Of a DNA stretch of 64,000 nucleotides, positions 1,193-31,743 are shown one piece after another. Position 1 is the first letter of the stretch, and every line of letters starts with the position of its first letter. Position numbers and translations under genes: made by a program. Location of the stretch: positions 286,867 to 350,866 of the IMG/VR virus record IMGVR_UViG_3300024259_002152; one strand, 5' to 3'. The notes under the pieces were generated by a model that was given only the letters and a program-made list of their open reading frames with translations, made no database searches and was not told the origin of the DNA. This DNA is from a virus.

Positions 1193-1981
1193 ATGATAGG
1201 TTCCATAATAGGCGATGTAATTGGTTCTCCTTATGAGGGGAGAAGGATGAATTTCTTTGATTATGATTTCCCTCTCTTTAATGAAAGATCTACATTTACA
1301 GATGATACTATACTAACTGTTGCTACAGCTAAAGCTATACTTGAAGATATTCCTTACAAAGATGTTTATCTTGAGTTTGGTAGAAAGTATAAACGTAAGG
1401 GTTATGGTGGAGCTTTTGAAGCATGGTTATGTTCTGATGATCCTCAACCTTATGATAGTTGGGGAAATGGTTCTGCTATGAGGGTGGGCCCTATAGGTTT
1501 TTATTTTGACGAAGATGATGAAATCTTAAAAGAAGCAAAAGCAAGTTCAGAAGTAACTCATAATCATCCACATGGAATAGACGGTGCTCAAGCAATAGCT
1601 TTAGCTATTCATCATGCTAAAATAGGAGACAGCAAAGAACAGATAAAAAAAATTGTTTTTGCTGTGACTGGTTATTATGATTTGAATAAAACTGTAGATG
1701 ATTATAGAAAGAATTATAAGTTTGATACTAGTTGTAAAGTAACTGTTCCCCAAGCATTAACTGCCTTCTTTGAATCTGATAGTTTTGAAGATTGTATTAG
1801 AAAGGCAGTTTTAATGGGGGGAGATACAGATACGCTGGCGTGTATAGCAGGGTCAGTAGCAGAAGCATATTATAAGATTATTCCTAATAATATTAGCATG
1901 AAAGCTTTAGAAAAACTACCTGTAGAATTTTCAATTATAATAAATCGTTTTTATAGGGAAGTTTTAGAAGGAAATATATGA
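1193..1981 (+). CDS. ADP-ribosylglycohydrolase (ARH/DraG family)
   Basis: N-terminal GSIIGDVIGSPYE, C-terminal GGDTDTLACIAGSVAEAYY signature of ARH family. Confidence 0.75.
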   Translation: MIGSIIGDVIGSPYEGRRMNFFDYDFPLFNERSTFTDDTILTVATAKAILEDIPYKDVYLEFGRKYKRKGYGGAFEAWLCSDDPQPYDSWGNGSAMRVGPIGFYFDEDDEILKEAKASSEVTHNHPHGIDGAQAIALAIHHAKIGDSKEQIKKIVFAVTGYYDLNKTVDDYRKNYKFDTSCKVTVPQALTAFFESDSFEDCIRKAVLMGGDTDTLACIAGSVAEAYYKIIPNNISMKALEKLPVEFSIIINRFYREVLEGNI

Positions 1982-2673
1982 TGCTGATTACTGTCATTGC
2001 AGATATGCATGGAAATTTGAAGTTTAAAGTTCCAGAAACGGATTTGCTTTTGATAGCGGGAGATATATGTCCAGCTTCTCATGATCGTTATATATCTATT
2101 GGTATGCAAAGAACATGGTTGGAAAACAAATTTAAAAAATGGATTTATGAACAACCTGTTGATCATGCTATTGCTATAGCTGGAAACCATTGTTGGATAT
2201 GGGAATGTGCTGAAAGTGAAGTTCCTATATGGTTTCCTAAAAATTGTGTCGATAAAGAAATGGTGGAGGATAATAAGATTGAATATATAGAGGACTTTTT
2301 AGTTTTCTATAAGGATTTAAAAATATATGGGACTCCTGTTCAGCTTTCTTTTAATAATTGGGCTTTTAATCGGGAAGAAGAATCACTACAAAAGTATTGG
2401 GATAATATCCCTGAAGGACTAGATATACTTCTTCTACATAGTCCTCCATATGGAATATTAGACCAAACTCATCATCCTAAATATCCTTCTAAGCGTATAG
2501 GTAGTAAAAGTTTGTTAAAAAGAATAAAACAGGTTAAACCTAAACTGGTAGTTTTTGGTCATAATCATGGAGACCATGGGGTGGTTGAAGAAGATGGTAT
2601 TAAGTATATTAATGCTTCTTTAATTGACGAGCATTATAAAATGGTAAGAAAACCGATTGTTATAGAAATATAA
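1978..2673 (+). CDS. calcineurin-like metallophosphoesterase
   Basis: DMHGN, GDI, GNHC, LLLHSPP, GHNHG motifs; start overlaps upstream stop. Confidence 0.7.
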   Translation: MMLITVIADMHGNLKFKVPETDLLLIAGDICPASHDRYISIGMQRTWLENKFKKWIYEQPVDHAIAIAGNHCWIWECAESEVPIWFPKNCVDKEMVEDNKIEYIEDFLVFYKDLKIYGTPVQLSFNNWAFNREEESLQKYWDNIPEGLDILLLHSPPYGILDQTHHPKYPSKRIGSKSLLKRIKQVKPKLVVFGHNHGDHGVVEEDGIKYINASLIDEHYKMVRKPIVIEI

Positions 2674-2754
2674 CACTTAAAGGATATTTATAGGTATTTT
2701 AAGAATTATAATAATTATAGATATTTGATTTTACTAGGATTATAAAAAAGACAA

Positions 2755-5535
2755 ATGAGAATAGCTGATATATACCAGACTGTAGCTGATAATATAAATA
2801 GCGCTCAGGATAGAGGTGGGGATATAGTGTCTTATGTTGATCAGATGATGACAGACATTAATGATTCTGAGATACCTACTAATGACACAAACAAGAAAAC
2901 ACTAGAAAGTCAAATTAATGCGACTTCCCACCTTCTCATTTTAAAGAATAATACCTATACTGTTGAAGTGCTAAATTTTGTCCGAGAGTTACAAAAATAT
3001 GTAACGGAAGAGTATGGTTCAATAAATACTTTTTTAAGAGATCATGGCATACTAGTGGGAGTTACTTTTGCTGATATATCTAAAACTGTAGGATATCCAA
3101 TCGATGCAGATAATATCGTTGTAGATTATGGGTGCGATTTTTATGTGTCTAATAGTGGTAATGATTCAAATGATGGACGCACTGCGGCAACCGCATGGGC
3201 TACTCTTGATAAAGTTAGTAGCGTTCTTACTGATGCTACATTGAGTGTGGATAATGCAATTAGTGCTGGTGATATTGTTGGTTTTCGTACAGATGATATT
3301 TTTGTTGGAACATTAGATACTTCTGAAGTTGACGGTAGTTCTGGAAATCCTATTACTTTTACTTCATATGGGACGGGAAATAAACCAGTAATTACTGGTA
3401 AGATTACTTTAGGAGATAATTGGGTTCATCATTCTGGTAATATTTGGAGATATGATGTTTCATCTTTGTCTGCCACTCATGTTAGATATTTATTGTTGGA
3501 TGGTGTCGATCAAACAATGTCTCAATCAGAAGTGGGATATGCAGACAATGCGACATATAGTTCTTTCCAAGACTATAATTTAAGCTTTAATCCAAGCTTT
3601 AATCCTAGTGTAGATCCCGATTATAATCCTAGCGATTATGACAGTATTTATGTGGGTGCTGAAGTATTGATGAGAACAACAATTTTTACATGGGATATAC
3701 GAACTGTTACAGATTATGATCCTTATTCGGGGACAATATGTTTTGCACCAACTGTAAGTTATATTCTGGGAACAACAGGATCTTCTAAGGGGGGTTATTT
3801 CTTTCAGAATTCTTTATATATTTTGGAACAAAATGAGATTCAGGGGGAATGGGTAAATGAAGGTGATTATATTTATTATTATTCAATAACTGATCCTTAT
3901 GATTTAGGAACCATTGAAGTAAGTTCAGTAGATACTTTAATGGAAATTGAAAATTCAGAATATATAACTGTTAATAATCTAAAGTTTATGTATGCTAATG
4001 ATTATGCCATATTAGGGGATGGAGCCAATTATAAAAATATAAATAATTGTCATTTTGAGCAATGTAACACTGGTATTTTTGAGGCAATCACAGGTTCATC
4101 AAATTCAATAATAGATAATAATATTTTTACAGATATGGGTAGCATTGCTATTCATCAACGTGATTCAGTTGATGTGACAATTACAAATAATACTATTACT
4201 AATATCGGTTTGACAATTGGCAGGATGGCTTATGTAGAAGATTCTAATACTTGGAATCCTAATATGTGGTATTCGGGTATACATTGTATAGATGCGTCAG
4301 GAGGATTGATTAAATATAATAATATTACAAATGTTGGTTATATAGGATTTAATTTCACCAGACCTACCGATCAAGTGCTTATACAATATAACTATATGAA
4401 AAATCCTTGTTTTTTACTCGTCGATGGTGGATCATTTTATTCTTATAGTAATGCTCAACCTACTGTAACTTCAAATATTAATCAAATAACCTATAGAAAT
4501 AATATTGCCGAGTATGATGATTATGATAATGTAGATCGTTTGATTGGACTTGAAGGTTCTACTTATGAGGAAAGTTCTGCCGGAGTTGTTGGTCTATTTA
4601 AAGATGGATATCTAAGAGCTGCTAATTATTATGATAATTTTGCATTTGGTTTTTTCTTTGCTATTAGAAGCAATGCTTCGATGTATTCTGTGTGGTCAGG
4701 AAATATTGGAGTAGATAAATATTACATTTCTGGAACTGCTAGATCTTTTTATATGGCTGATGCGGCTTCAGTATTTTGGGTTAATAATATTTGTGAAAAT
4801 AATGTTTTTGTTTCTAATTATGTAGGTAGTTCTAGAGTGGGTTTGGTATATGATGATCAATTAATTGCTGCTAGTGGCAATTCATTTGATTATAATAAGA
4901 TGTTAAATCCATTTACTATACTTCCAGAACGTATTTCTACTTTGCCAAGCTTCAACTATTTAACAATAGAAGAATGGAAAGCATATGATGCAGTAGGACC
5001 TCATGAAACTTCTAATGTATTTTTGTATTCTATATCTGGACTATCTTCTGAGTCCGAATTTATCTGGTATGCTACTAATCCTACAAAATCAACAGTTAGT
5101 GTCAGTTTCCCTGCTGGCTATCGTTACTATACTGTTGATGGAGACGCAGTTACAAGTGATACCCTATCTTTATATGAAGGTAAGGTTTATTACAGGACTA
5201 TAGATGAAGGAATGCCTCAGGCTAGTAGTGTTACTATAAGTGAAAATATAAGCGCTAATCCTTCTAGCGGTGGAGTTTATGATGCTTCTTATGATTATAA
5301 CCATGCCGAAGGGAATACTGAATCAGGTTCTACTTATCAGTGGTATCGTTCAATAGATGGGACTGTTGAAGCGAGAGTAACAATTTCAGGTGCGAATAGC
5401 TTATCATATGACACAACTAGTATGGATATCGATCAATATGTCTTATTTGGTGTGACACCAAAATCTGCTGCTGGAGCGGGAAGTTTAGTTACCGGAGTGG
5501 AAAGATTTAGCAATACCATGTCTGTAGTTTGGTAA
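2755..5535 (+). CDS. tail fibre/tailspike with right-handed beta-helix (pectate-lyase-like) domain
   Basis: 926 aa; SGNDSNDGRTAATAW start of beta-helix, many NNIxxN/IGxxG repeats, Gly/Ser-rich termini. Confidence 0.6.
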   Translation: MRIADIYQTVADNINSAQDRGGDIVSYVDQMMTDINDSEIPTNDTNKKTLESQINATSHLLILKNNTYTVEVLNFVRELQKYVTEEYGSINTFLRDHGILVGVTFADISKTVGYPIDADNIVVDYGCDFYVSNSGNDSNDGRTAATAWATLDKVSSVLTDATLSVDNAISAGDIVGFRTDDIFVGTLDTSEVDGSSGNPITFTSYGTGNKPVITGKITLGDNWVHHSGNIWRYDVSSLSATHVRYLLLDGVDQTMSQSEVGYADNATYSSFQDYNLSFNPSFNPSVDPDYNPSDYDSIYVGAEVLMRTTIFTWDIRTVTDYDPYSGTICFAPTVSYILGTTGSSKGGYFFQNSLYILEQNEIQGEWVNEGDYIYYYSITDPYDLGTIEVSSVDTLMEIENSEYITVNNLKFMYANDYAILGDGANYKNINNCHFEQCNTGIFEAITGSSNSIIDNNIFTDMGSIAIHQRDSVDVTITNNTITNIGLTIGRMAYVEDSNTWNPNMWYSGIHCIDASGGLIKYNNITNVGYIGFNFTRPTDQVLIQYNYMKNPCFLLVDGGSFYSYSNAQPTVTSNINQITYRNNIAEYDDYDNVDRLIGLEGSTYEESSAGVVGLFKDGYLRAANYYDNFAFGFFFAIRSNASMYSVWSGNIGVDKYYISGTARSFYMADAASVFWVNNICENNVFVSNYVGSSRVGLVYDDQLIAASGNSFDYNKMLNPFTILPERISTLPSFNYLTIEEWKAYDAVGPHETSNVFLYSISGLSSESEFIWYATNPTKSTVSVSFPAGYRYYTVDGDAVTSDTLSLYEGKVYYRTIDEGMPQASSVTISENISANPSSGGVYDASYDYNHAEGNTESGSTYQWYRSIDGTVEARVTISGANSLSYDTTSMDIDQYVLFGVTPKSAAGAGSLVTGVERFSNTMSVVW

Positions 5536-5536
5536 T

Positions 5537-6133
5537 TTGTATTTAAGAAAGCGTAAACTATCTATTAATATTATGGAATACAGAGAAAAAATAAAAAGAG
5601 AAAAACAAATGATAGATAGTTGGGAAGAGATGGAAACCAGCAAACAACAACTGTCCCAACTTTTACTCAATCAAAGACAATTAGGTCCACAAGATTTTAT
5701 TCTTTTTTTTCAGTGTATGATCTTGGTTGTAGAAAATGTGGAAATACATAAAGAAGAGATAGAAGATTCTCCAGATAGATTAGAAGTAGAGAATACAGAT
5801 GAAAAATTTTATAATATTTTTGGTCCTTTATCAGAGAATGTGGAGAAACTTTGCGGTAAAGAAATAATTGGAGAGATAGAATATTTTCTTATGTCAATGG
5901 ACGATTCTAAGACTATAAACGAAAGATTCGATGCTATTGAGAAAATAAGGATGTCGGCATGGAAGAATATGTCTAATAAAAAAGATGAGATTGTAGAGTT
6001 GTTAGAAAGATATCCCAAGGATATATGTGCTGATGATTTTATGCTTATTTTTAAATGTATCTCTATGATATTACTAGAGTTAGATATGAAAAACCAAGAG
6101 AGGCAAATGCTGAAAAAGCTCAAATTTGAGTAA
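5537..6133 (+). CDS. hypothetical acidic protein
   Basis: 198-aa ORF. Confidence 0.4.
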   Translation: MYLRKRKLSINIMEYREKIKREKQMIDSWEEMETSKQQLSQLLLNQRQLGPQDFILFFQCMILVVENVEIHKEEIEDSPDRLEVENTDEKFYNIFGPLSENVEKLCGKEIIGEIEYFLMSMDDSKTINERFDAIEKIRMSAWKNMSNKKDEIVELLERYPKDICADDFMLIFKCISMILLELDMKNQERQMLKKLKFE

Positions 6134-8259: not shown

Positions 8260-9327
8260 ATGAAAATAGAAGATGTTGGTAATAGCTCTTTTAAATGTAA
8301 ATTATTGTTAGGGAATGCTAAAAATGTTTTGCAAGATATCCCTGAAAATACTTTTCATATGGCAGTGACAAGTCCTCCTTATTGGGACCAAAGAGACTAT
8401 AACGTAGATGGTCAATTAGGTCAAGAAAATAGCCCTGAAGAGTATGTAGAGAATTTAGTCGCTATCTGTAGAGAAGTAAGAAGAGTTATTAGGGAAGATG
8501 GCACTTTTTGGCTTAATATCGGAGACGGTTATTGTAAGAAAACTATTAAATCTTCAAATCTTAAACAAAAAGATTTAGTAGGTATACCGTGGATGGTTGC
8601 GTTTGCTCTTAGGCAAGATGGGTGGTATTTACGAAGTGATATTATTTGGAAAAAAACAAATCCTATGCCCGAGAGTGTAAGAACAAGACCTTCTAAATCT
8701 TATGAACATTTATTTCTTTTCTCCAAATCGGAAAATTATTTCTATGATGCAGAAGCTATAGCAGAGCCACAGAAAGAGATTTCTGTTAAAAGAGCTTATT
8801 CTAAAAATAGAGTAGAAAAGAGAAAAGATTATCAAAATGATAATTATGCTATTAGTGGTAAGTCCCAAGATAAAACATATAGAAAGATGAGAAAAATATT
8901 AGACGAGATGGGAGAAGATGAGGTCATCACGTGTAATAAAAAAGATGTTTGGGAAATAGCTACTGCCGACAATAAGGTTAAACATTTTGCCATCTATCCA
9001 AGAGAATTAGTTAAGCCTTGCATTTTGGCAGGTAGTTCTTCGAAAGGTTGTTGTCCAAAATGCCAATCTCCATGGATTATGGAAAAGGGAAAAAATTGGG
9101 AACCAAGTTGTAATTGTGGAGAAACAGAAGTAAAAGAATGTATTGTTCTAGATCCTTTCAATGGGTCAGGAACTACAGGAATGATATGTAGAGAATATGG
9201 TAGAAAGTATGTAGGAATAGATATTAGTGAGGAATATTTATCTTATGCAAGAGATGCTTTGATAGGAGAGAGGAGAGCAGAAATGGCAGAAGAAGTAGAT
9301 TCTATTCAACAACTTAAAGTTTTGTAA
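8260..9327 (+). CDS. DNA methyltransferase, beta-class (N6-adenine or N4-cytosine)
   Basis: Motif IV VTSPPYW precedes motif I LDPFNGSGTTG; Cys-cluster insertion. Confidence 0.75.
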   Translation: MKIEDVGNSSFKCKLLLGNAKNVLQDIPENTFHMAVTSPPYWDQRDYNVDGQLGQENSPEEYVENLVAICREVRRVIREDGTFWLNIGDGYCKKTIKSSNLKQKDLVGIPWMVAFALRQDGWYLRSDIIWKKTNPMPESVRTRPSKSYEHLFLFSKSENYFYDAEAIAEPQKEISVKRAYSKNRVEKRKDYQNDNYAISGKSQDKTYRKMRKILDEMGEDEVITCNKKDVWEIATADNKVKHFAIYPRELVKPCILAGSSSKGCCPKCQSPWIMEKGKNWEPSCNCGETEVKECIVLDPFNGSGTTGMICREYGRKYVGIDISEEYLSYARDALIGERRAEMAEEVDSIQQLKVL

Positions 9328-9368
9328 AATAAGAACTTACAGAAATCTTACAATTTAGGAGTGAAAAA

Positions 9369-9410
9369 TTCCAGACAACGCTTTTCTTAAAATTATAGCA
9401 TAGAAAGTGT
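9369..9410 (+). promoter_or_regulatory. promoter box + -10 TATAGCAT + AGAAAGTGTG box
   Basis: TTCCAGACAACGCTTTTCTTAAAATTATAGCATAGAAAGTGTG. Confidence 0.55.
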
Positions 9411-9446
9411 GTTTTTGAAGAAAGTATAGATATAGAAAGGGCTGTT

Positions 9447-10136
9447 ATGGTAGTTAAATTGACTCATCCATTTTTGATGGAATGTATTGATCCTAAGGGT
9501 CTTTTAAGGAATAACCTTAAAAGCAAATCTATGACATTCTCCATGTTTTCTGGCCGACTTAGAAAGCAAGCTACAAAGTATGCGACAGGTGGGGATGGTA
9601 AAGTAAACGAAGATAAAGAAAATAAATACAAAGGTAATGGGTTTGAGTTATTCTGTGAGATATTTGTAAGAATATTTGGTTTTGATATGCTGGTTTCAAT
9701 AAATCCCGATTCTTATGAAATAGTTGCTGATGGTGATGATACAGGAGTTGATGGAATAGGAATAGGTAACAATGGAAAAATTCATACCTTACAAGCCAAG
9801 TTTTGTATCGGCACAGAAGAATTAACAGCTAATAGGCAACATCTTACAAATTTCACTTCTGCATCTATGCTTAGGTATAATGTTAATAAAGATGAAGTAT
9901 GCAATCTTAATAGGCCTGGGATAAAAAGTAAAATTAATATGACGATCATGCATACTGGTAAGGGTATTAATCATTATACTGAGAATGATATGCTTTGTGG
10001 GCTTATCAGAGAGATAGGTTTAAAGGATATCAAAAATAAAGTAGATGGTAATAATATTTTTTGGGAATGTTTTAGGAAATCATGGGACAAACATCTTACA
10101 GAACTTATGAAGAAAAAGAGAAATGATGAAAAATAG
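9447..10136 (+). CDS. Mrr-like PD-(D/E)xK restriction-endonuclease-fold protein
   Basis: GNGFELFCEIF...DGDDTGVDGIGI...TLQAKF resembles Mrr_cat D-(E/Q)xK core. Confidence 0.4.
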   Translation: MVVKLTHPFLMECIDPKGLLRNNLKSKSMTFSMFSGRLRKQATKYATGGDGKVNEDKENKYKGNGFELFCEIFVRIFGFDMLVSINPDSYEIVADGDDTGVDGIGIGNNGKIHTLQAKFCIGTEELTANRQHLTNFTSASMLRYNVNKDEVCNLNRPGIKSKINMTIMHTGKGINHYTENDMLCGLIREIGLKDIKNKVDGNNIFWECFRKSWDKHLTELMKKKRNDEK

Positions 10137-11877
10137 ATATTTGTATCCATATCAAGAATTGCTTATTGAAAAAAGTTTAGACCCATCTATGGAAAAAGGC
10201 AGAATAATATTACCTACTGCTTCTGGTAAGGGTGTTATTTGCAGAGATATCATACGCAGAATGATTATATCTTCTGAAAATAAACTCAATCAGTTTCTGG
10301 GGGCTATTTTCACTCCTCGTCTTCTTTTAAATAAACAGTGGACAAATGATTGTAGGGAATATTTTGAAAAAATAGATAGACCTTATAATTTTGCTCTTGT
10401 TGGTTCTTTAGGATTTAATAAGGAAGAAGCGATATCTATTGAAGAGGCGTTATATTTCATATCAGGAGTTGGGGTTGATGCTCCCTGTCATGCTAAAACA
10501 GCTAAAGATTTAAAAGAGTTTGTAGAAAGCAACAGGACAAAAGGTGTTAATACAATTGTAATTTCTACTTATCACTCTAATAGAATTGTTAGAGCCTCAG
10601 GACTGGTTTTTGATTGTGCTGTGTATGATGAAGCTCACTACCTGCCTGGCAGAGAGCCTCAGGCAGGAGCTACAAGAGCTATTGATGAATTGTTTGAAGC
10701 AACAGAAGTGTTAACAAAGAAAAAAATATTTACTACTGCTACAGAAAAACTTGGAGATGATCTGTTTGATATTGAAGAGGATAATATAGAGTATAATGGC
10801 AGAGGTATGGAAAATGAAGATATTTATGGTGCTGAGATATTTGGATGGATAGATAAAAAAACAGGACGACATAGACGTGTTTCTCCAAGAGATTTAATTG
10901 AATTCGGCTCAATATTGGAACCTAGAGTTTATGTTATTACAGATAATGACATAGACAAATATGAGCTTGATAGTCTTAGCGATGTTCCTAAAATAACTCC
11001 TGATCAGCCTCTGGGGCAACGTCAGGCAGAAGAAGTAGCTAAGGTTACTTTTATATCTTTTGAGGGCCATAAAAAAGAACTTAAAAAAGAGTCTGATTTT
11101 CCTGAGAAAATTGGGGCTAAGATGATGGTTGTTTGTGATGGTTTTAAAGAACTCGAGGGAATTAGAAACTCAAAAGAACTGCAAAATTTTAGGAGTAAAA
11201 ATCCTAAGGTGAAATTATATTTTATTAGTTCTGATTCTGATGGAGGCATATATATTCATGGGCAAGAAAAACAAAATTACAGTAATAAATCTAAAAAAGA
11301 TTTTTTAGATGCTCTGAATAATTTGAGTTCTGAAGAAGATGCTATAATTTACCATATTGATATCCTTACTTGCGGAATTGATGTCCCTTCATTAACAGGT
11401 GTTTTATTCTTTAAAGAATGCAAGTTAATAAAATTGCTTCAAAATATAGGTAGGGGTTCAAGACTTCATATCGAAGATAGAATAAGATGGGAAAATGGAG
11501 AGATCGAACCTGGAGGAAAAGGGTATATTAAACCTAGTTTTCATGTTTTACTCCCAATACTCAAACAGGACACTGAAGATTTTGTTAATAAATTTGTCAA
11601 AATAATAAATAGAATGAGGGATAATTATGGTTTTAAGGCTTATGAATTCTTACATATTGGGGCCACCAAAGAGCCTGGTGGAAAAGTGCCTATTGAAATT
11701 GCTGGACTAAAAACTCCTTTAAGTCAACTGAAAGATAAAGCTGGTAGAGTCTATTATGAGTGGATAGAAGATAAAAGGATTAAAAGAGAAGAAAGAAAAA
11801 TACAGGAAGAGATAGATAATCTTAAAAGATGGGTAGAGAATGGAGAATGGGATAAAATTGCAGAATATAAGAAATAA
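10123..11877 (+). CDS. SF2 DEAH-box helicase (HsdR/Res-like)
   Basis: PTASGKG (motif I), VYDEAHYL (DEAH), QNIGRGSRLH (motif VI); overlaps upstream nuclease ORF by 14 nt. Confidence 0.65.
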   Translation: MMKNRYLYPYQELLIEKSLDPSMEKGRIILPTASGKGVICRDIIRRMIISSENKLNQFLGAIFTPRLLLNKQWTNDCREYFEKIDRPYNFALVGSLGFNKEEAISIEEALYFISGVGVDAPCHAKTAKDLKEFVESNRTKGVNTIVISTYHSNRIVRASGLVFDCAVYDEAHYLPGREPQAGATRAIDELFEATEVLTKKKIFTTATEKLGDDLFDIEEDNIEYNGRGMENEDIYGAEIFGWIDKKTGRHRRVSPRDLIEFGSILEPRVYVITDNDIDKYELDSLSDVPKITPDQPLGQRQAEEVAKVTFISFEGHKKELKKESDFPEKIGAKMMVVCDGFKELEGIRNSKELQNFRSKNPKVKLYFISSDSDGGIYIHGQEKQNYSNKSKKDFLDALNNLSSEEDAIIYHIDILTCGIDVPSLTGVLFFKECKLIKLLQNIGRGSRLHIEDRIRWENGEIEPGGKGYIKPSFHVLLPILKQDTEDFVNKFVKIINRMRDNYGFKAYEFLHIGATKEPGGKVPIEIAGLKTPLSQLKDKAGRVYYEWIEDKRIKREERKIQEEIDNLKRWVENGEWDKIAEYKK

Positions 11878-11945
11878 CTCTTTCCAGGCGATGAGATTTT
11901 CAGTTTAGTAAAGTGTAAATGATGTTATAAATATAAGGAAGCAAG

Positions 11946-13133
11946 ATGGAGCTTACTGAAAAGTTAAAGAAAGAAGCTGTAAGGGGACTTATTAAAGAGA
12001 TATGCAAAGAAGATGGCTCTATACAAAATGTCCATACTCCTTATTCTCTTTGTGAAGATATAATAGAAAAGGCAGTTGATTATATTGAAGATTTAGAGAA
12101 TAAAAGTATTCTTGTTATGTTTAACCTTGAATTTATTGATAGTCTTATTGACTTGGGTATAGATCCTAAGAATATAACTTTTATGTCAGATTCAGAACAA
12201 AGAAGAGGTTTGGCAGAAAATTTTTATGAAGTTGAAGCTATTGAATTTAAATTATCAGATTTAAATGGAGATAATATAATGGGTAAACAATTCGACCATG
12301 TGATTGGTAATCCTCCTTATCATAAAAAAGGAAATGAAAAAGACACAAAGACGCAAGCGATATGGCCATCATTTGTTGATTTGTCTTTACAGTATTGTAA
12401 GGATGATGGGCATTTGTGTTTTGTGCATCCATCAGGGTGGAGAGGAAATGGAATGTATAAAAAAATAGGTAGGTTGATGAAATCAAAGCAGATAGAATAT
12501 TTAGAAATTCATGATGAAAAAGATGGGATGAAAGTATTCGATGCTGAGACAAGATATGATTGGTATGTTTTGCAAAATAAATATAATGAAGATGTTACCG
12601 AAATTAAAGACCAAATAGGGAAAATCTCTAAAATAAATATAAGAGACATGGAGATAATTCCTAATTTTAACATTATAGATGTTCAGAATCTCATTGCTAA
12701 AGATGGGGAGGAAAAGGTTACCGTTCTGTCAGATTCTACATATCATACTCAATCTGGTGTTAAAAAAGGGTTTATGAGCGAAACAGAAACAAAGACACAT
12801 AAATATCCGTGTGTGTATGTGGTTAACTCTGTGGGAGAAATGCAATTATGGTATTCTTCTGTAAAAAAAGGACATTTTGGGACAACCAAGCTTATATTTT
12901 CTAATGGCAGAATATCTTCTGCTAATTATTTTGTAGATCAAAATGGAGAATACGGTTTGACTCAATTTTCTTATGGGATTATAGACAGTATCGAGAATTT
13001 GAGAGATATATATAAAGCAATGAGAACTAAAGAATTTAAAAATTTAATGGAGGCATGTTCGATAGGAATGCTTACTATTAATAAAGATGTTTTAAAAACA
13101 TTCCGTAAAGATTTTTGGAAGGAGTTTGTATAA
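11946..13133 (+). CDS. N6-adenine methyltransferase-like protein (NPPY, no clear motif I)
   Basis: VHTPYSL (motif X-like), FDHVIGNPPY (motif IV), LCFVHPSGW. Confidence 0.5.
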   Translation: MELTEKLKKEAVRGLIKEICKEDGSIQNVHTPYSLCEDIIEKAVDYIEDLENKSILVMFNLEFIDSLIDLGIDPKNITFMSDSEQRRGLAENFYEVEAIEFKLSDLNGDNIMGKQFDHVIGNPPYHKKGNEKDTKTQAIWPSFVDLSLQYCKDDGHLCFVHPSGWRGNGMYKKIGRLMKSKQIEYLEIHDEKDGMKVFDAETRYDWYVLQNKYNEDVTEIKDQIGKISKINIRDMEIIPNFNIIDVQNLIAKDGEEKVTVLSDSTYHTQSGVKKGFMSETETKTHKYPCVYVVNSVGEMQLWYSSVKKGHFGTTKLIFSNGRISSANYFVDQNGEYGLTQFSYGIIDSIENLRDIYKAMRTKEFKNLMEACSIGMLTINKDVLKTFRKDFWKEFV

Positions 13134-13738
13134 TGGTGAAAGAAATAACAAATACAGAACAAGTTTTAAAGAATGAGGAAAGAAGAAAAAAAGAGCAGAA
13201 GCAAACCGCAGAAGTATTCACACCTGATTCATTAGTGAATGAAATGTTAGATAAATTGCCTGAGGAATCGTGGAAAGAGAGGAAAACTTTTATAGACCCT
13301 GCTTGTGGTAATGGTAATTTTTTAGTTCATATATTAAATAGAAAATTAAAAAGAGGCCATGATTCAGTTGGAGCTTTAAAATCTATTTATGGGCTTGATA
13401 TTGAACAGAGTAATATTTTTGAATGTAGATTAAGACTTTTAAAAATTGTTAGTTTGCAAGAAGAACTAACTGAAGAACATCTTAAAGCAGTTACTATAAA
13501 TATTAAATATTTAAATAGTAAAAAGTGGCCTAATGGTTCTCTTGACTATGATATGGAATTTAGAAATAATGCTAATCTTCAAACTATTAAAGAATGGTTA
13601 GAAGATATTAAAAAAAATGGTCTCGATCATGTGGCTATACCTGATAATATTGAATACACTATCGCAACCCCAGCTTTGGAAAATGGGAAAATATCAAACA
13701 GGAATGTAGAAAGTATTGATATGTTTGGAGATGATTAA
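13133..13738 (+). CDS. methyltransferase N-terminal-domain-like protein (motif X/I, no motif IV)
   Basis: EVFTPDSLV...FIDPACGNGNFL (motif I), GLDIEQ; ATG at 13133 behind GGAAGGAG; TAATG overlap with upstream gene. Confidence 0.5.
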   Translation: MVKEITNTEQVLKNEERRKKEQKQTAEVFTPDSLVNEMLDKLPEESWKERKTFIDPACGNGNFLVHILNRKLKRGHDSVGALKSIYGLDIEQSNIFECRLRLLKIVSLQEELTEEHLKAVTINIKYLNSKKWPNGSLDYDMEFRNNANLQTIKEWLEDIKKNGLDHVAIPDNIEYTIATPALENGKISNRNVESIDMFGDD

Positions 13739-13741
13739 AAA

Positions 13742-13783
13742 TTCCAGACAACGCTTTTCTTAAAATAGTAGCATAGAAAGTGT
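13742..13783 (+). promoter_or_regulatory. promoter box + TAGCATAGAAAGTGTG
   Basis: near-identical to 9369 copy. Confidence 0.55.
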
Positions 13784-13829
13784 GTTTTTCAACTAGAACA
13801 GTGTTTTTTAAAGAAACGAAGGCGCAAAA

Positions 13830-14150
13830 ATGGCATTAGAAGTTACAATTATTCCCATCAAATGGCAAAAATTAGATGACAATATCCCTACTCTTAACTG
13901 TCCTGTTTGTGGAAAAGAGTGGGAACAAGAAGGAGGATATCCAGTAACTCCTTGTGAGCATCTAAAGTTTCGTTATCTAGAGGGAATTAATGTTGAATAC
14001 TTCGGAGACTGGGATCATAACAATTTTGATTTGGATGAAGTTTTGAAGGGCAAAATAACTGATCAGATTAGTGTTATATATCTATTTGAAGGGACCTCTA
14101 TGTCTTGCGGTCCCGTTTTTACGAGTATTTACTATGGCGTAAAAGAGTAA
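13830..14150 (+). CDS. hypothetical zinc-ribbon protein
   Basis: CPVCGKEW...PCEH. Confidence 0.4.
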   Translation: MALEVTIIPIKWQKLDDNIPTLNCPVCGKEWEQEGGYPVTPCEHLKFRYLEGINVEYFGDWDHNNFDLDEVLKGKITDQISVIYLFEGTSMSCGPVFTSIYYGVKE

Positions 14151-14163
14151 TATTTCGTAAAAA

Positions 14164-14196
14164 TTCCAGACAACGCTTTTTTCAGGGTTGTAAGAT
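14164..14196 (+). promoter_or_regulatory. promoter box
   Basis: TTCCAGACAACGCTTTTTTCAGGGTTGTAAGATATG. Confidence 0.5.
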
Positions 14197-14409
14197 ATGA
14201 AAAAGTTAATTGAAGCATTACAAATATTGTTGAAATATGGTAATCCTGCTTATCCTACTCATTGCGAACATGATGTATTGATTATTTGTGGAATAGAACC
14301 TAAGAATGTCTCTCAAGAAGATATTGAGAAATTGGGTGAATTAGGATTTATTATTAGTAAAGAATACGGGACCGAGTCTTTCAGTTCATTTCGATATGGA
14401 TCTGCATAA
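14197..14409 (+). CDS. hypothetical protein
   Basis: 70-aa ORF directly behind promoter box. Confidence 0.4.
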   Translation: MKKLIEALQILLKYGNPAYPTHCEHDVLIICGIEPKNVSQEDIEKLGELGFIISKEYGTESFSSFRYGSA

Positions 14410-14411
14410 AA

Positions 14412-14453
14412 TTCCAGACAACGCTTTTCTCAGAATTATAGCATAGAAAGTGT
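14412..14453 (+). promoter_or_regulatory. promoter box + TAGCATAGAAAGTGTG
   Basis: third near-identical copy. Confidence 0.55.
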
Positions 14454-14501
14454 GTTTTTTTAACAATAGAGTGGTTTTTAACAAGAAACGGAGATGTAGC
14501 G

Positions 14502-14957
14502 ATGAACGATGCAAAAAAGAAGTCGATTTTGGACAAGTATGAGAGTTGGGAAAGTGTTCCTGCCGCTATTAAGGCATGGATTACTACGGATGCCATAAAA
14601 GAGGGTAAAAACCCTGTTATGGTTCGGGCTGGCTACAAAGCAGCATTCAAGAGAATCCAGAACAATACCACTTTTACCATCGTGAGAGAAGATGGTGGGT
14701 ATCTGGGCGGCTGTGTGAGTTCGATTCCTCTTCATCATGTCATTAAGGCAAGAAGTGAACAGATGCTCACGGACAAGATTGGAAGAATCTATGAGGACAT
14801 CCTGGAAGGTAGTAATAAGGATTCCAAGGGATATTGGAAGGCAATGTCTTTGAAAAAAGAGAATATTACTTCTCTAGTCGAAGATTTAGAAGCTATTACT
14901 GTTGATGGTGTCGAACTCCAAATCATCAGCGATCCTGAGCATGTAGAGATCCTCTAA
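14502..14957 (+). CDS. hypothetical protein
   Basis: 151-aa ORF, followed by terminator. Confidence 0.45.
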   Translation: MNDAKKKSILDKYESWESVPAAIKAWITTDAIKEGKNPVMVRAGYKAAFKRIQNNTTFTIVREDGGYLGGCVSSIPLHHVIKARSEQMLTDKIGRIYEDILEGSNKDSKGYWKAMSLKKENITSLVEDLEAITVDGVELQIISDPEHVEIL

Positions 14958-15026
14958 CGTATAAGAGAATATGGATCAGCGTCTTAAACAACTATAAAAA
15001 TAAAGTAGACGCTACCCTAGATCAAA

Positions 15027-15056
15027 GGCACAAGCTAATAACTTGTGCCTTTTTTC
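15027..15056 (+). terminator. rho-independent terminator
   Basis: GGCACAAG-CTAATAA-CTTGTGCC-T6. Confidence 0.7.
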
Positions 15057-15060
15057 ATTT

Positions 15061-15095
15061 TTCCAGACAACGCTTTTCTCAAAGTTGTATAATAA
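15061..15095 (+). promoter_or_regulatory. promoter box, -10 TATAAT
   Basis: AGACAA-N17-TATAAT. Confidence 0.6.
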
Positions 15096-15123
15096 ATGTG
15101 CTAATAAAGGTTGATAGAAAAGT

Positions 15124-15375
15124 ATGGAACAAAGTTATTTTTTAAGTAAATTAAAGACTCATATAGATAGAACGGCCAATGCTCATGACCCTCAAATCAC
15201 CGCCAATGCTATTTATTTTATAACTAAACAATATCCTGTAAGTGTAATCAGCAAAGAAGCTTACAGAGAAACCCTTAAGAAGATAAGAACTCATTTAGTA
15301 GAGAATTTTGGGTGGAAGATGACTGAGGTTCATAGATGTGTTTGTATCCTACATAGATTGATGAAAATATTTTAA
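15124..15375 (+). CDS. hypothetical protein
   Basis: 83-aa ORF. Confidence 0.4.
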   Translation: MEQSYFLSKLKTHIDRTANAHDPQITANAIYFITKQYPVSVISKEAYRETLKKIRTHLVENFGWKMTEVHRCVCILHRLMKIF

Positions 15376-15420
15376 AAAAACATCTTGACATGAAAGTGGA
15401 AGAAGGGTAAAATAGACATT

Positions 15421-15657
15421 ATGACATGGAAATCTATAAAAGGTGTAAAACCCCCTTCTTTGAAAAGAGTATGGATATCCTATTATATAGATGGGATTTT
15501 AACTAAACAATATCAAACTTATGCTAAAGCTGTAGGAAAAGATCCTCATGGAGATATTTTTTGGCATGATTTTATGACTGGCAAAGTTCTTGATAATAGT
15601 AGAATTACAGTGTCTCATTGGATGGCAATTCCTGATAATCCAATTCTTAATTTATGA
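15421..15657 (+). CDS. hypothetical protein
   Basis: 78-aa ORF. Confidence 0.4.
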   Translation: MTWKSIKGVKPPSLKRVWISYYIDGILTKQYQTYAKAVGKDPHGDIFWHDFMTGKVLDNSRITVSHWMAIPDNPILNL

Positions 15658-27239: not shown

Positions 27240-27471
27240 AAACTGTTTAGATTGTAGTTGTCATGAAATTATTGATGATCGAGATCCTCATGACTCGTTT
27301 TGTAGTGATGATATAGCAGTAGTATGCACAATAACCCAAAATCCTAACTGCAAACCAAAATCTAAATATCTAGCAAGTAGAAGTAAATTTCATATAGTAG
27401 CTTGTGCTTGTAGACCTTATAATGCGAAAAAAGAAGCAACAGTGCCCGATTGGTGCCCAAAAAACAAATAA
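27187..27471 (+). CDS. Cys-rich hypothetical protein
   Basis: 94-aa ORF. Confidence 0.35.
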   Translation: MRYMRKPLMTTKKKKKIKNCLDCSCHEIIDDRDPHDSFCSDDIAVVCTITQNPNCKPKSKYLASRSKFHIVACACRPYNAKKEATVPDWCPKNK

Positions 27472-27481
27472 GGAATTGTCC

Positions 27482-28417
27482 ATGGCAAATGTAGTAATGA
27501 TTGTAGGATATCCCGCAGCAGGAAAATCAGCGATAGCACAAGGATATATAGACCATGGATATACCATTCTAAATAGAGATACAGAGGGAGGAACTATCTC
27601 TGCCCTTGTGCCTAAGATGGTAAAACTTATTAGACAATATACAGACGTTGTCCTAGATAATACTTTCCCTACCAAACAAGTTAGAAAACAATTCATAGAA
27701 GCATGTAAAGATAATAATACTCCTATCTATTGTAATTGGGTTAATTCTTCTATAGAAGAAGCTCAGTTTAATGCCTGTCAAAGAATGATAAAGACAAGGG
27801 GCAAACTTCTCTCTTCAGAAGAGATTAAAAAAGAAAAAAGTCCTAATATGTTCCCTCCTATGGTCCAATTCAAATACCGTAAAGAGTTTGAAGAACCATC
27901 AGAAAAGGAGGGTTTTGGTATGGTGACTATAACAGAATTTGAAAGAAGATTTCCCCCTAATTGGAAGAATAAAGCCCTATTCCTTGACTATGATGGAACA
28001 CTTAGAACTACAAAAAGCGATAAGAAATGGCCTACCAAACCCAATGACATTCAAATACTTCCTAATCGAAGAGCCGTCCTTGATTACTATAAATCTCAAG
28101 GATATATTCTGTTGGGAGTTAGTAATCAATCGGGAATAAGAAAAGATAATCCAACCGAAGAACAAGCAATAGTTTGCTTCGATAAAACTAATACTATGCT
28201 TGGACATAAGATAGATTATAAGTATTGCCCCCATAGACCAGCTCCCATTAGCTGCTATTGTAGAAAACCTATGCCAGGAATGGCAATAGAATTTTTCCAT
28301 AAATATAAACTAGATCCTACTCAGTGCATTATGGTGGGAGATATGACCTCTGATGAAACGTTTGCTAAGAGATCCCATATGCAGTTTGTTCATGCTGATG
28401 AATTTTTTAAGTCATAG
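27482..28417 (+). CDS. pnk: polynucleotide 5'-kinase/3'-phosphatase (T4 Pnk-like)
   Basis: Walker A GYPAAGKS (kinase) + HAD phosphatase LDYDGTL, GVSNQSG, MVGDMTSDE; ATG 27482 behind AAGGA. Confidence 0.75.
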   Translation: MANVVMIVGYPAAGKSAIAQGYIDHGYTILNRDTEGGTISALVPKMVKLIRQYTDVVLDNTFPTKQVRKQFIEACKDNNTPIYCNWVNSSIEEAQFNACQRMIKTRGKLLSSEEIKKEKSPNMFPPMVQFKYRKEFEEPSEKEGFGMVTITEFERRFPPNWKNKALFLDYDGTLRTTKSDKKWPTKPNDIQILPNRRAVLDYYKSQGYILLGVSNQSGIRKDNPTEEQAIVCFDKTNTMLGHKIDYKYCPHRPAPISCYCRKPMPGMAIEFFHKYKLDPTQCIMVGDMTSDETFAKRSHMQFVHADEFFKS

Positions 28418-30057: not shown

Positions 30058-30366
30058 ATGAAAGTCGTGTTAAAACAAAGTTTCAAAATTGGTACTGATA
30101 TATTGAGATATGTAACGTTATGCAAAGAAATTGATATGCCATTCATGCCACAACTGGGTATATATATAGTAACTAAGCCGTGTTTTGCTGCTCGTCAGGT
30201 GTCTTATGGTACATGGGACGCAGAGACAGAACGGGCAGAGGCATATTTCTGTGAGAAAACATATGGATCTCCTAAAAAGAAACGCAAAGTCCAATTAGCA
30301 GAAACACTGAGATTTGAAGCAGATATTGAAGAATATAAAAAACATGGATGGACAGAAGAAGCATAA
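30058..30366 (+). CDS. hypothetical protein
   Basis: 102-aa ORF. Confidence 0.4.
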   Translation: MKVVLKQSFKIGTDILRYVTLCKEIDMPFMPQLGIYIVTKPCFAARQVSYGTWDAETERAEAYFCEKTYGSPKKKRKVQLAETLRFEADIEEYKKHGWTEEA

Positions 30367-30369
30367 AAC

Positions 30370-30780
30370 ATGGGTAATATCAATACAATTAAAGATAAAG
30401 ATGGAAATGTAATAGGACAAGCTGATCTTGGACTAGCCTGTTACGCAGTGGTTATAGAGATTATAAAAAAATATAATCCAGATAAGACTATTACATTCCC
30501 AAAACCTGGAGAAATAAATGGGTTACTTGAACCAGCCTATGAAAAAGGAAAAGATTATGAAGTAATACAACTCCAAGTATTTATCAATGATAAATCTACT
30601 TTTACAGAAGAAGATATAGAAGCATTTGAGATGGCTGCTGAAAAATGCTTATCACAAAATGAAGAAAAAGGACCAAAGAGAGTCCTGATTGCCGTAAAAG
30701 AATTGATAGAAAAATATGGCGAAATAACGATGGAATATGTGGCAGTAACCCCTCCAAAAATTACTGTTACGAAGGAATAA
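30370..30780 (+). CDS. hypothetical protein
   Basis: 136-aa ORF. Confidence 0.4.
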   Translation: MGNINTIKDKDGNVIGQADLGLACYAVVIEIIKKYNPDKTITFPKPGEINGLLEPAYEKGKDYEVIQLQVFINDKSTFTEEDIEAFEMAAEKCLSQNEEKGPKRVLIAVKELIEKYGEITMEYVAVTPPKITVTKE

Positions 30781-30855
30781 ACAATGAATTATACGTTTAT
30801 ATTAACTAATGGATATATGGAACAACATCATAAATGGTTGTATTGGAAATAGACG

Positions 30856-31743
30856 ATGGAACTAATAGTAGAAACAGATATAGGAAGAGATCCTGATGAT
30901 TTCTTTACCCTCTGCTACCTAATCTCAGCAGGGGTGCAAATAAGGGCTATTACTGTCTCTCCTGGAGATCTAGATCAAGTAGCGGTAGTTAAATTTTTAC
31001 TTAAAGAAGTAGGTCTAACTATACCAGTAGGAGTAGGTAGACTAAATAGAATTAAATCATCAGTAGGAGGAGTTCATACCGAACTACTAAGAAAATATAA
31101 ATTTCCATCTGTTTTTCATGATGATGGTTTCGGACCTATAGTAATAAGAGAAACATTTAATAGATATAGAAATGCAGAACTACTCTGTATAGGACCTCTT
31201 TTGAGCGTAGGAGAATATCTTTCACCTCACTCTTCCCAAAAAATATTCTTTGTTAAAAGAGCAACTATGCAAGGAGGTTTTATAGGATATGATATACATG
31301 GTGTAAAAGTCCCAGAATTAGATAAATTTAAAGGACTTACAACATGCTTAACTTTTAACCTCGGAGGAGATAATGAAGGAGCTATGACGTATATCTCCTC
31401 TAAAATGATTAGAGAACGTAATTGGATAGGAAAAAATATCTGCCATACTATCGAATATGATGAAAATGTTCATAATTTTATCCTGTCCATCAAACCCCAT
31501 GATAGAGCAGGAGAATTATTGAGAGAAGGCATGGGCATGTATCTGGCAAAACATAAATCTAAAAAATTCCATGATCCAACAGCAGCAGTGTGTATGCTTC
31601 ATCCAGAAATAGCTACATGGACAAAAGGTAAAATGTATTATGATAGAGGGAAGTGGGGAGCTACTCTTAATGAAAATGGAGATAATATAGCTATTGATGT
31701 AGATAGATCACAATTATGGAATTTTATCGCGAAAGGAGAATAA
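30856..31743 (+). CDS. inosine-uridine-preferring nucleoside hydrolase family protein
   Basis: N-terminal ETDIGRDPDDFF (DxDxxxDD) signature. Confidence 0.65.
   Translation: MELIVETDIGRDPDDFFTLCYLISAGVQIRAITVSPGDLDQVAVVKFLLKEVGLTIPVGVGRLNRIKSSVGGVHTELLRKYKFPSVFHDDGFGPIVIRETFNRYRNAELLCIGPLLSVGEYLSPHSSQKIFFVKRATMQGGFIGYDIHGVKVPELDKFKGLTTCLTFNLGGDNEGAMTYISSKMIRERNWIGKNICHTIEYDENVHNFILSIKPHDRAGELLREGMGMYLAKHKSKKFHDPTAAVCMLHPEIATWTKGKMYYDRGKWGATLNENGDNIAIDVDRSQLWNFIAKGE

Follow-up and report, generated by a model that had tools for sequence, protein, structure and literature searches.

ADP-ribose-related genes of a huge phage, tentatively read as three separate accessory modules

The 64,000 nucleotides analyzed here (the window) are positions 286,867 to 350,866 of the viral record IMGVR_UViG_3300024259_002152. 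They encode an ADP-ribosylglycohydrolase (ARH), a metallophosphodiesterase (MPE), a nucleoside hydrolase (NH), a PARP and a macrodomain protein (macro), which an earlier note had read as a dispersed ADP-ribose toolkit. The open reading frames (ORFs) of ARH, MPE and NH lie where that note placed them, all on the plus strand, and the PARP/macro pair that it mentioned is present as well (Table 1). The five genes do not form one operon. The ARH-MPE pair occupies 1.2–2.7 kb of the window, NH lies at 30.9 kb, PARP at 58.4 kb and macro at 63.0 kb. In between are a tRNA array and dozens of genes that are unrelated to them.

The window belongs to a huge phage with a genome of at least 327 kb, as indicated by the contig size, the 31 tRNA genes at 41–51 kb, the sizes of the relatives and the matches among deposited phages. 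The identical ARH protein is encoded on a 326,829-bp JGI metagenome contig (the source contig) and the identical NH protein on contigs of up to 350,866 bp. The relatives are IMG/VR viral contigs of 298–461 kb, and a DNA-level search of deposited phages matched only ‘uncultured phage’ genomes of the LR7565xx series (462–735 kb). That search returned just a weak 100–200 bp match inside ARH and thus no close deposited relative. The G+C content of the window is 33–38%, and the plus strand holds nearly all long ORFs. Judging from the best matches of several genes, the host is probably a member of the Bacteroidota, because macro resembles Bacteroides BT1257, ARH resembles proteins of Porphyromonas/Bacteroides phages, and MPE resembles proteins of crAss-like/Flavobacterium phages.

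We compared about 280 related loci (labels of the type L001 denote loci of relatives). The best 80 loci were listed for each of PARP, ARH and MPE, most of them on contigs that are fragments; those of PARP were taken from 170 PARP-bearing viral contigs and their genes were clustered. The deposited phage set comprised 50,697 records. All window ORFs of at least about 120 aa were scanned with Pfam. PARG (DUF2263) was not detected in the window, and no NADAR, NUDIX, KptA, 2H or sirtuin domain was found among the scanned ORFs either.

Table 1. Features of the window, with positions counted from its first nucleotide; the five main genes are listed first.
Feature	Position	Strand	Length	Description
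ARH	1193..1981	+	262 aa	ARH3-like ADP-ribosylglycohydrolase, short; PF03747; complete binuclear metal site
MPE	1978..2673	+	231 aa	MPPED1/2-type (class III) metallophosphodiesterase; coupled to ARH via ATGA overlap
NH	30856..31743	+	295 aa	Divergent IU-type nucleoside N-ribohydrolase; PF01156
PARP	58404..59735	+		Putative WGR domain, helical regulatory and ART domains; H-Y-E triad
macro	62954..63511	+	185 aa	BT1257/SCO6735 (ALC1/TARG1-like) type
Rnl1	39..626	+		T4 Rnl1-type RNA ligase, C-terminal part; gene begins upstream of the window
orf144	717..1151	+	144 aa	Conserved protein, always between Rnl1 and the ARH/MPE genes
Beta-helix protein	2755-5535		926 aa	Right-handed beta-helix (NosD/Beta_helix), C-terminal Ig-like domain; directly after MPE
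N6/N4 methyltransferase	8260-9327			DNA-modification cluster
Helicase	10123-11877			ResIII type; DNA-modification cluster
Eco57I-like/N6 methyltransferase	11946-13133 and 13115-13738			Apparently split in two ORFs
DndB-like protein	15654-16988			DNA-modification cluster
Pnkp	27404..28417	+		T4 Pnkp-like polynucleotide kinase/HAD 3'-phosphatase; 2.4 kb upstream of NH
tRNA array	41039-51150		31 genes	Spans most amino acids
HNH endonuclease	48075-48659			Within the tRNA array
SPFH/Band-7 protein and Cys-rich protein	54419-56740		277 aa (Cys-rich protein)	Upstream of PARP
LAGLIDADG homing endonuclease	59804..60610	+		Free-standing; PF03161 (2.5e-19); between PARP and the 194-aa gene
194-aa protein	60686..61270	+	194 aa	Long acidic (Asp/Glu) tract

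The five genes and their catalytic motifs

The Pfam assignments that the earlier note proposed for ARH, MPE and NH all exceed the curated cut-offs. ARH matches ADP_ribosyl_GH (PF03747) over residues 1–227 of 262 (1.2e-38; 133.9 bits against a cut-off of 26.2) and PHROG 6572 at 1.7e-56. Its best solved relatives are ARH3 (6g1p, 6.6e-16), Lmo0067 and MJ1187; DraG (9e-9) and ARH1 (1e-4) are more distant, and the DraG and Tri1 equivalog models give only 65 bits against a cut-off of 337 and 39 bits against 490, respectively. In the alignment, residues E15, T36-D37-D38 and D211-x-D213-T214 fall on the ARH3 metal ligands E41, T76-D77-D78 and D314-D316-T317. The Asp/Thr ligands, whose possible loss the earlier note had raised, are kept: E15, T36-D37-D38, T122-H123 and D211/D213/T214 are invariant in 14 family members (alignment A2). 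The metal site is complete, and from its residues ARH is predicted to be an active glycohydrolase. ARH shares the PF03747 fold and identical binuclear-metal ligands with human/vertebrate ARH3 (ADPRHL2), DraG and Tri1, but it is shorter than ARH3 (about 350 aa) and, unlike these characterized enzymes, belongs to a large, uncharacterized subfamily of short bacterial and phage proteins. ARH3 reverses O-linked and phosphate-linked ADP-ribosylation, including that of nucleic-acid ends.

MPE matches the Metallophos family (1.2e-11; 45.9 bits against a cut-off of 21.5), and its motifs D9-x-H11, G28-D29, G69-N70-H71, H154 and G194-H195-x-H197 are invariant in 15 diverse homologues. The fold is nearer to MPPED2 than to other metallophosphoesterases, and MPE retains the catalytic His that is missing from rat MPPED2. 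Assignment as an ADPRibase-Mn (ADPRM)-type ADP-ribose pyrophosphatase was ruled out by the fold ranking, and MPE has no specific similarity to 2nxf. The earlier note had also suggested that MPE processes ADP-ribose-1''-phosphate, and we found nothing that ties the enzyme to this compound.

NH matches IU_nuc_hydro (PF01156) over residues 3–288 (1.6e-12; 48.2 bits against a cut-off of 34.2), and the 33% identical homologue in L115 scores 54.8 bits against the same model. D12, D14, D15, Q139-G-G-F, T166/N168 and D240 are invariant in 16 members (alignment A3), and H239, in the motif FHDP, is nearly so. This Asp cluster and His-Asp pair probably correspond to D10/D14/D15/H241/D242 of the IU-nucleoside hydrolases. 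The N-terminal Asp motif is spaced TDxGxDPDD rather than as the canonical DxDxxxDD. NH thus shares with the enzymes of Crithidia (C. fasciculata IU-NH), E. coli (RihA-C) and yeast (Urh1) a full-length PF01156 domain, the N-terminal Asp cluster and the His-Asp of FHDP, but it is very divergent from them and almost confined to huge phages and a few metagenome-assembled genomes. A phmmer search of PDB sequences gave no match, and a search with the family profile recovered 3t8j as the sole solved relative (6e-4). NH looks like an active salvage hydrolase.

The catalytic (PF00644; 1.6e-24, 87 bits against a cut-off of 26.7) and helical regulatory (PARP_reg, PF02877; 7.2e-8, 33.0 bits against 26.8; residues 125–240) domains of the PARP are well supported. 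The WGR match (PF05406) is weak, at 16.9 bits against a cut-off of 22. The protein does have a literal W-G-R at residues 38–40, six phage PARPs all keep G39-R40-V41, and the part that aligns to the WGR region of PARP1/2 starts at residues 19–36. The protein matches the PARP1 and PARP2 structures at 1.9e-18. H310 (LWHGT), Y345 (GVYFSD) and E418 (NDEMIVY) are invariant in the six phage PARPs, and H310 and Y345 fall inside the stretch aligned to PARP1. Several cultured phages have an annotated PARP, and the window protein is 31–34% identical over 94% of its length to those of XacN1, Xoo-sp13 and the Klebsiella phage. The family was found in 170 IMG/VR contigs and matched 20 of the deposited records.

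No Pfam family matched macro at E <= 0.01. The protein was found instead through solved structures: 2afc/2fg1 (BT1257) at 2.3e-28 over residues 25–182, 5e3b (SCO6735) at 3.1e-25 and the ALC1 macrodomain at 9e-6. Evidently, Pfam models cover this macro subfamily poorly. Macro also matches PHROG 335, annotated as ‘phosphatase’ (7.7e-20), and its family is present in 332 deposited phage records. We predict from these assignments that PARP and macro are a writer/eraser pair. The probable WGR-helical-ART order, the H-Y-E triad and a nearby macrodomain eraser are also seen in the PARP systems of Herpetosiphon aurantiacus and Clostridioides difficile CD160 and in the phage PARPs of XacN1, Xoo-sp13, Klebsiella FBKp34 and Cellulophaga phi17:2 (PMC5966428). 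Bacterial PARP systems use PARG/MacroD, whereas here the eraser is a BT1257/TARG1-like macro and the ARH3-like gene is separate, 57 kb off.

Conserved neighborhoods of the ARH-MPE pair, PARP-macro and NH

The ARH-MPE pair is part of a conserved RNA-repair island. On the source contig, Q_salvage, TnpB and an AAA protein gene precede Ro60 (TROVE+vWA) upstream of the window, and Ro60 is followed by two small genes, Rnl1, orf144, ARH and MPE. Relatives with 66–74% ARH identity keep the order Ro60-x-x-Rnl1-orf144-[MPE2-DUF6899-small ORF]-ARH-MPE. Rnl1 on the source contig has 403 aa and the RNA_lig_T4_1 domain (PF09511); the part inside the window matches PHROG 562 (3.2e-15) and TIGR02308 (8e-4), and the gene is syntenic in L002-L008, L103, L104 and L181. 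The product of orf144 is 43–76% identical in six relatives and belongs to a family of 106 representatives, many of them about 285 aa long with the orf144 domain at the N-terminus. Some of these longer representatives match DUF7666 weakly; orf144 itself has no Pfam, PHROG or NCBIfam match, and its AF2 single-sequence model was unusable (pLDDT 39.9). The phage-encoded Ro60 near Rnl1, with the queuosine-salvage gene and TnpB/OrfB_IS605 upstream, was seen on the source contig and in L003, L181 and L182. In L003, the AAA gene carries an intein-like Hom_end/LAGLIDADG insertion.

As the earlier note had observed, ARH and MPE overlap in the tetranucleotide ATGA, which contains the stop codon of ARH (TGA, 1979-1981) and the start codon of MPE (ATG, 1978-1980). 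The same 4-nt overlap is found in L002 and L006. A terminator scan of positions 1–6000 found none between the two genes, and a promoter scan of the same interval performed no better than on shuffled sequence. MPE is the steadier member of the island and ARH an accessory insertion beside it, because a 548-kb relative (L181) keeps the island with MPE and without ARH and a 276-kb relative has an additional gene between the two. Adjacency of ARH and a different metallophosphoesterase has also arisen independently in L098/L101 and in L099. This parallels the ARG-phosphatase coupling described for bacteria in one survey, where ARG is tightly coupled to a phosphoesterase and calcineurin-like enzymes are among the partners, as here (Iyer, Burroughs, Anantharaman & Aravind, 2022, PMC9503650). 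The bacterial systems, as described there, are host-encoded, Nudix/WYL-regulated and mostly associated with rhodanese-type phosphatases; in contrast, the pair in the window is phage-encoded, lies in a Ro60-Rnl1 island and has an MPPED2-type diesterase.

Calcineurin-like enzymes have been described in jumbo-phage RNA repair (PMC7824862). The window genome resembles the T4-type tRNA repair (Pnkp + Rnl1) and jumbo-phage Ro60/Y-RNA modules in having Rnl1, Pnkp and a TROVE/vWA Ro60. T4, however, lacks ARH and the one or two metallophosphodiesterases of the island, and Pnkp here is 25 kb from Rnl1. We did not find a description of a phage ARH/MPPED2-type diesterase pair in a Ro60-Rnl1 island in the literature. 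Our preferred view is that the pair supplements the Ro60/Rnl1 RNA-repair island.

The tight coupling of ARH and MPE also suggests consecutive steps, and the two enzymes could then degrade ADP-ribose-derived or cyclic-nucleotide immune signals. In this scheme, a bond between two riboses or between base and ribose, such as those of glycocyclic ADPR and His-ADPR, would be opened by ARH, and MPE would cut the phosphate linkage or cyclic nucleotides. Enzymes of the MPPED2 family hydrolyze cAMP, cGMP and other diesters (PMC10547211), and MPE has the catalytic His that the rat protein lacks. Furthermore, calcineurin-like phage diesterases are predicted to counter nucleotide signals (PMC7824862), and MPE is as widespread in phages as expected of an anti-defense gene. 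We nonetheless regard this role as highly unlikely. A literature text search found no phage ARH tied to Thoeris, and the island is an RNA-repair context. In addition, a published survey (PMC9503650) argues that viral ARGs prefer macromolecular adducts.

The distribution of ARH raises a second alternative. The short ARH family has 7,848 bacterial hits, one of them a solitary gene in a Bacteroidota contig, and occurs in at least 586 IMG/VR viral contigs and 23 of the deposited phage records. Most carriers are bacteria and phages without a detected PARP. ARH, perhaps with macro, could therefore be an anti-defense eraser that acts independently of PARP against host ADP-ribosyltransferases (ARTs) such as DarT on DNA, CmdT-like or Rhs-type enzymes on RNA, or toxin ARTs on proteins, with MPE and NH as bystanders. 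The greater number of ARH than PARP contigs (at least 586 against 170) agrees with such a role, as does the presence of ARH in temperate Porphyromonas/Bacteroides phages, in whose records the PARP search found no match. An ARH in an RNA-repair island would also fit the removal of RNA lesions. Phage macro-type antitoxin mimics against DarT (PMC13309987) and a host defense based on mRNA ADP-ribosylation (PMC11618068) have been reported. However, no host ART was identified, and many of the bacteria in which ARH abounds show no obvious conflict context. The conserved translational coupling argues for MPE as a partner rather than a bystander, and macro is consistently linked to PARP instead of free-standing. 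We consider anti-defense a rather unlikely role overall.

In L012 (Porphyromonas phage005b) and about 40 of the loci L096-L175, ARH lies between a small transcriptional regulator/integrase and a minor-capsid/portal/terminase block. This setting is quite unlike the island of the huge phages. A role of the temperate-phage ARH as an immunity protein for a capsid-packaged ART fused to the adjacent ‘minor capsid protein’ was considered and is unsupported, since the 686-aa neighbor (cluster 2) has no Pfam match.

The PARP-macro locus is conserved separately from the RNA-repair island. The two closest PARP relatives (L016 and L017; 66% and 55% identity) share the arrangement SPFH-orf277-...-PARP-...-macro, with a macro homologue 3.8–6 kb downstream of PARP, and a homologue is also near PARP in L032. 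The SPFH/Band-7 and Cys-rich (PHROG 2554, 9.9e-70) proteins upstream of PARP are syntenic in L016 and L017. A LAGLIDADG homing endonuclease gene follows PARP in the window but is missing at this position in the closest relative, L016. It looks like a recent selfish insertion, because the 194-aa gene directly follows PARP in relatives. By tblastn, homologues of this 194-aa protein are found in L016 (53%), directly after PARP in L018 and L019, and in L009/L017. The N-terminal ~80 residues are conserved right downstream of PARP (L016, 9996-10568; L018, 1526-1744; L019, 9967-10182). The protein matched no Pfam, PHROG or NCBIfam family and could be a partner or substrate of PARP.

The PARP-macro pair recurs in at least four phage clades and is joined in other clades by NADAR, NUDIX, DNA or RNA ligases and sometimes an MPE homologue. 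For example, the large clade C has the order LigA-...-PARP-c15-NADAR-...-MPE homologue, with PARP, macro, NADAR and MPE within about 7 kb. The c15 gene, which follows PARP in 20 clade-C loci, encodes a macro of the window type that is recognizable solely by profile-profile comparison (hhalign 93.9%, E 1.6e-7). The full block in this clade (L046-L061, L068, L073, L084, L091, L095) reads NAD-dependent DNA ligase ... PARP-macro(c15)-NADAR-c10 ... GIY-YIG-MPE homologue-c22-c52. Other clades show dNMP kinase-endonuclease-Rnl1-PARP-NUDIX, Rnl1-...-ATP DNA ligase-...-Rnl2-like ligase-...-PARP and, in Cellulophaga-like phages, CCA-type nucleotidyltransferase-PARP-x-DNA ligase. In 18 loci of clades B and D (L023-L026, L029, L040; L050, L063-L092), a T4 Rnl1-type ligase adjoins PARP or lies within a few kb of it. 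An ATP-dependent DNA ligase and an Rnl2-like ligase are often also present in these neighborhoods, and in clade B NUDIX comes right after PARP. In L183, MPE, PARP and a DNA ligase (MPE-...-PARP-DNA ligase) fall within 6 kb, with MPE 3.6 kb from PARP-ligase. The ‘putative phosphatase’ encoded 2.4 kb upstream of the PARP of Klebsiella phage FBKp34 matches the profile hidden Markov model of macro at 2.9e-10.

A DNA or RNA ligase lies within 8 kb in 55 of the 80 PARP loci and NADAR in 21, counts that rest on about five or six independent clades and are suggestive rather than statistical proof. NADAR, macro and LigA were found in none of 80 control loci centered on ARH. These comparisons show that PARP-macro is a recurrent core around which ligases and assorted ADP-ribose hydrolases gather. 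In other phage clades, ADP-ribose enzymes do collect near PARP, namely macro, NADAR, NUDIX, one ARH and MPE homologues, which agrees in part with the reading in the earlier note. The repeated association of PARP-macro with ligases suggests, by analogy, a break-response role like that of PARP1-3. Moreover, the linkage of Rnl1 and MPE homologues to PARP seen in other clades lends real but indirect support to a functional theme shared by the dispersed genes.

NH has no such constant company. It was found in 20 IMG/VR contigs and in none of the 50,697 deposited records, and only one NH contig (424 kb, UViG_3300029288_006769) also has PARP. Its neighbors vary among ARH (L115), macro (L278), Pnkp (the window and L270), NadR-like and PnuC-like genes (L264) and a clamp loader with a 5-hydroxymethyldeoxyuridine (5-hmdU) kinase (L179); NH copies in bacteria are solitary. 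The Pnkp of the window, a healing enzyme for RNA/DNA ends, is recognized by AAA_33 (4.5e-8), PNK3P (1.9e-10) and TIGR01663 (2.3e-23), and in L270 a 45% identical homologue immediately follows NH. In L264/L265 (4886-11680), an NH relative (63% identity) lies between a NadR-like gene (CTP_transf_like + kinase) and a PnuC-like gene (NMN_transporter, weak), right before DUF3326; this context hints at nicotinamide-riboside salvage. In L179 (6001-7730), from a 463-kb phage, NH comes after a clamp-loader subunit and shares an overlap with the beginning of a gene for a 5-hydroxymethyl-dUMP/DNA kinase-like protein (HMUDK_hel). This arrangement may point to a connection with nucleotide or DNA hypermodification. 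A role in queuosine or DNA-hypermodification salvage was also considered, given Q_salvage on the source contig and the 5-hmdU kinase beside one relative's NH. There is no consistent ADP-ribose context around NH, which weakens its inclusion in an ADP-ribose set, as the earlier note had it.

The surroundings of MPE vary as well. Its family occurs in at least 569 IMG/VR viral contigs, as found with the family alignment A6. Among the best 80 MPE loci, the neighbors are heterogeneous (e.g., endolysin, ClpP, Por-tail protein, dGTP diphosphohydrolase) and PARP is within 10 kb in none. MPE and NH could then be ordinary nucleotide-metabolism genes, grouped by coincidence with PARP-macro and perhaps ARH as the only genes concerned with ADP-ribose. 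A genome of more than 300 kb holds hundreds of accessory genes, and the position of NH between a clamp loader and a 5-hmdU DNA kinase in one huge phage and its solitary copies in bacteria are consistent with this explanation. On the other hand, the ARH-MPE overlap is conserved, ARH-metallophosphoesterase adjacency recurs independently, and homologues of MPE are found close to PARP-macro-NADAR (clade C) and to PARP-ligase (L183). Furthermore, NH is beside ARH, macro or NadR/PnuC-like genes in four independent loci of about 25. We regard a purely coincidental grouping as unlikely.

The beta-helix protein encoded right after MPE is possibly depolymerase or tail-fiber-like and is not at this position in the relatives examined. 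A DNA-modification cluster spans 8260-16988, and its methyltransferase and DndB genes are syntenic in L002, L006 and L181. An Rfam scan found tRNAs and nothing else. The tRNA gene at 42263-42338 was left unassigned by ARAGORN (odd anticodon loop), yet it has an Rfam tRNA score of 41.7 bits.

Co-occurrence of the genes and the case for separate modules

If the five genes formed one pathway, PARP would make poly(ADP-ribose) (PAR), ARH and macro would degrade it, MPE would split ADP-ribose/phosphate derivatives and NH would finish the breakdown. All five genes are present in one genome, the catalytic motifs of ARH, MPE, NH and PARP are intact, and the nearest relative, UViG_3300035698_029839, keeps ARH, MPE, PARP and macro at the same spacing as the window. 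ARH3 cleaves PAR, and its structures are deposited as ‘poly(ADP-ribose) glycohydrolase ARH3’. Clade C, with PARP, macro, NADAR and an MPE homologue, L183, with MPE close to PARP-ligase, and the positions of NH beside ARH in L115 and near macro in L278 also speak for such a cycle. However, UViG_3300035698_029839 is the only contig on both best-80 lists of PARP and ARH loci. Among the deposited phages, the PARP and ARH matches overlap in LR756500 alone, a genome with 13 kb between the two genes and no MPE homologue close by. Apart from these two genomes and the NH contig with PARP mentioned above, the lists, each cut at 80 loci and drawn mostly from fragmentary contigs, share no members. ARH lies within 8 kb in just one of the 80 PARP loci (L055), and that ARH is of a different subfamily. 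The earlier note had named a lack of co-conservation with PARP as a point against its reading, and for ARH such a lack is largely what we observe. The nearest relative is not among the 20 NH-bearing viral contigs, and PARP is absent within 10 kb of the best 80 MPE loci. The genes of the window are, moreover, 28–57 kb apart and in different conserved islands. Taken together, the evidence makes a single coordinated cycle quite unlikely.

Three separate accessory modules fit the data better than one pathway. We therefore favor, with a probability of about 45%, a tentative reading in which ARH-MPE, PARP-macro and NH are distinct modules that touch NAD+/ADP-ribose and nucleic-acid repair and are not one operon or pathway. 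The toolkit proposed earlier is supported in part: the genes are real, the catalytic motifs of ARH, MPE, NH and PARP are intact, and a theme of nucleic-acid repair and NAD+ probably links the modules. Likewise, the description ‘unusually complete for a phage’ applies to the combination, which is uncommon in one genome, and not to its parts, because each family except NH is common by itself in viral contigs.

Several observations weigh against our reading. Distances of 28 and 57 kb separate the three modules, ARH and PARP occur together just in the nearest relative and LR756500, and synteny among relatives that are 60–75% identical can mirror common descent instead of function. The PARP-locus counts come, as noted above, from few independent clades. 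About half of the best 80 ARH loci belong to temperate-type phages in which ARH abuts capsid and portal genes. MPE may serve some general function that has nothing to do with ADP-ribose or RNA repair, because its homologues are common in Bacteroidota phages (crAss-like, Flavobacterium) without a match in the ARH or PARP searches and have heterogeneous neighbors. Furthermore, an end-healing role of MPE would duplicate the T4-type Pnkp already encoded in the window.

Proposed roles and significance

The substrates of the enzymes and the links between modules are what we infer from the established gene identities, catalytic motifs, gene order and conservation. In the first module, the putative WGR domain of PARP would sense nucleic-acid breaks, by analogy with PARP1-3, and the enzyme would use NAD+ to ADP-ribosylate proteins or phosphorylated nucleic-acid ends. 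Macro would then take off the ADP-ribose mark. In the second module, ARH would most likely remove ADP-ribose that a host enzyme or the phage has put on RNA ends or proteins. MPE could next trim a nucleotide or cyclic-phosphate ester so that the polynucleotide kinase and Rnl1 can heal and seal the RNA. In the third, NH may recycle a ribonucleoside, possibly nicotinamide riboside or adenosine from NAD+/ADP-ribose breakdown.

A broader version of this scheme joins PARP, macro, ARH, NADAR/NUDIX, ligases, Pnkp and MPE in a phage NAD+-dependent break-response system. ADP-ribose would be attached reversibly to proteins or to phosphorylated DNA or tRNA ends as a cap or signal and removed before ligation, and the system would be split here between the Ro60-Rnl1-ARH-MPE island and the PARP-macro locus. 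We consider this extension unlikely. If it were true, PARP-type break signaling, and possibly nucleic-acid ADP-ribosylation, would extend to phage RNA/DNA repair.

The component families are already known. PARP, Macro, ARG, NADAR and Nudix proteins and their RNA-repair links in large phages have been catalogued (PMC9503650; PMC7824862; PMC11662467), and the window is a new example with an uncommon combination. At present, it is mainly one more genome in the catalogued pattern of PARP, macro and ARG in jumbo phages. The ARH-MPE pair consists of two small soluble enzymes, whose substrates could reveal ADP-ribose adducts or signals relevant in Bacteroidota infection. If the modules cooperate, huge phages would own a PARP-style damage response with ADP-ribose removal tied to RNA/DNA ligation, and they would offer a simple bacterial-virus model for PARP biology and reversible nucleic-acid ADP-ribosylation.

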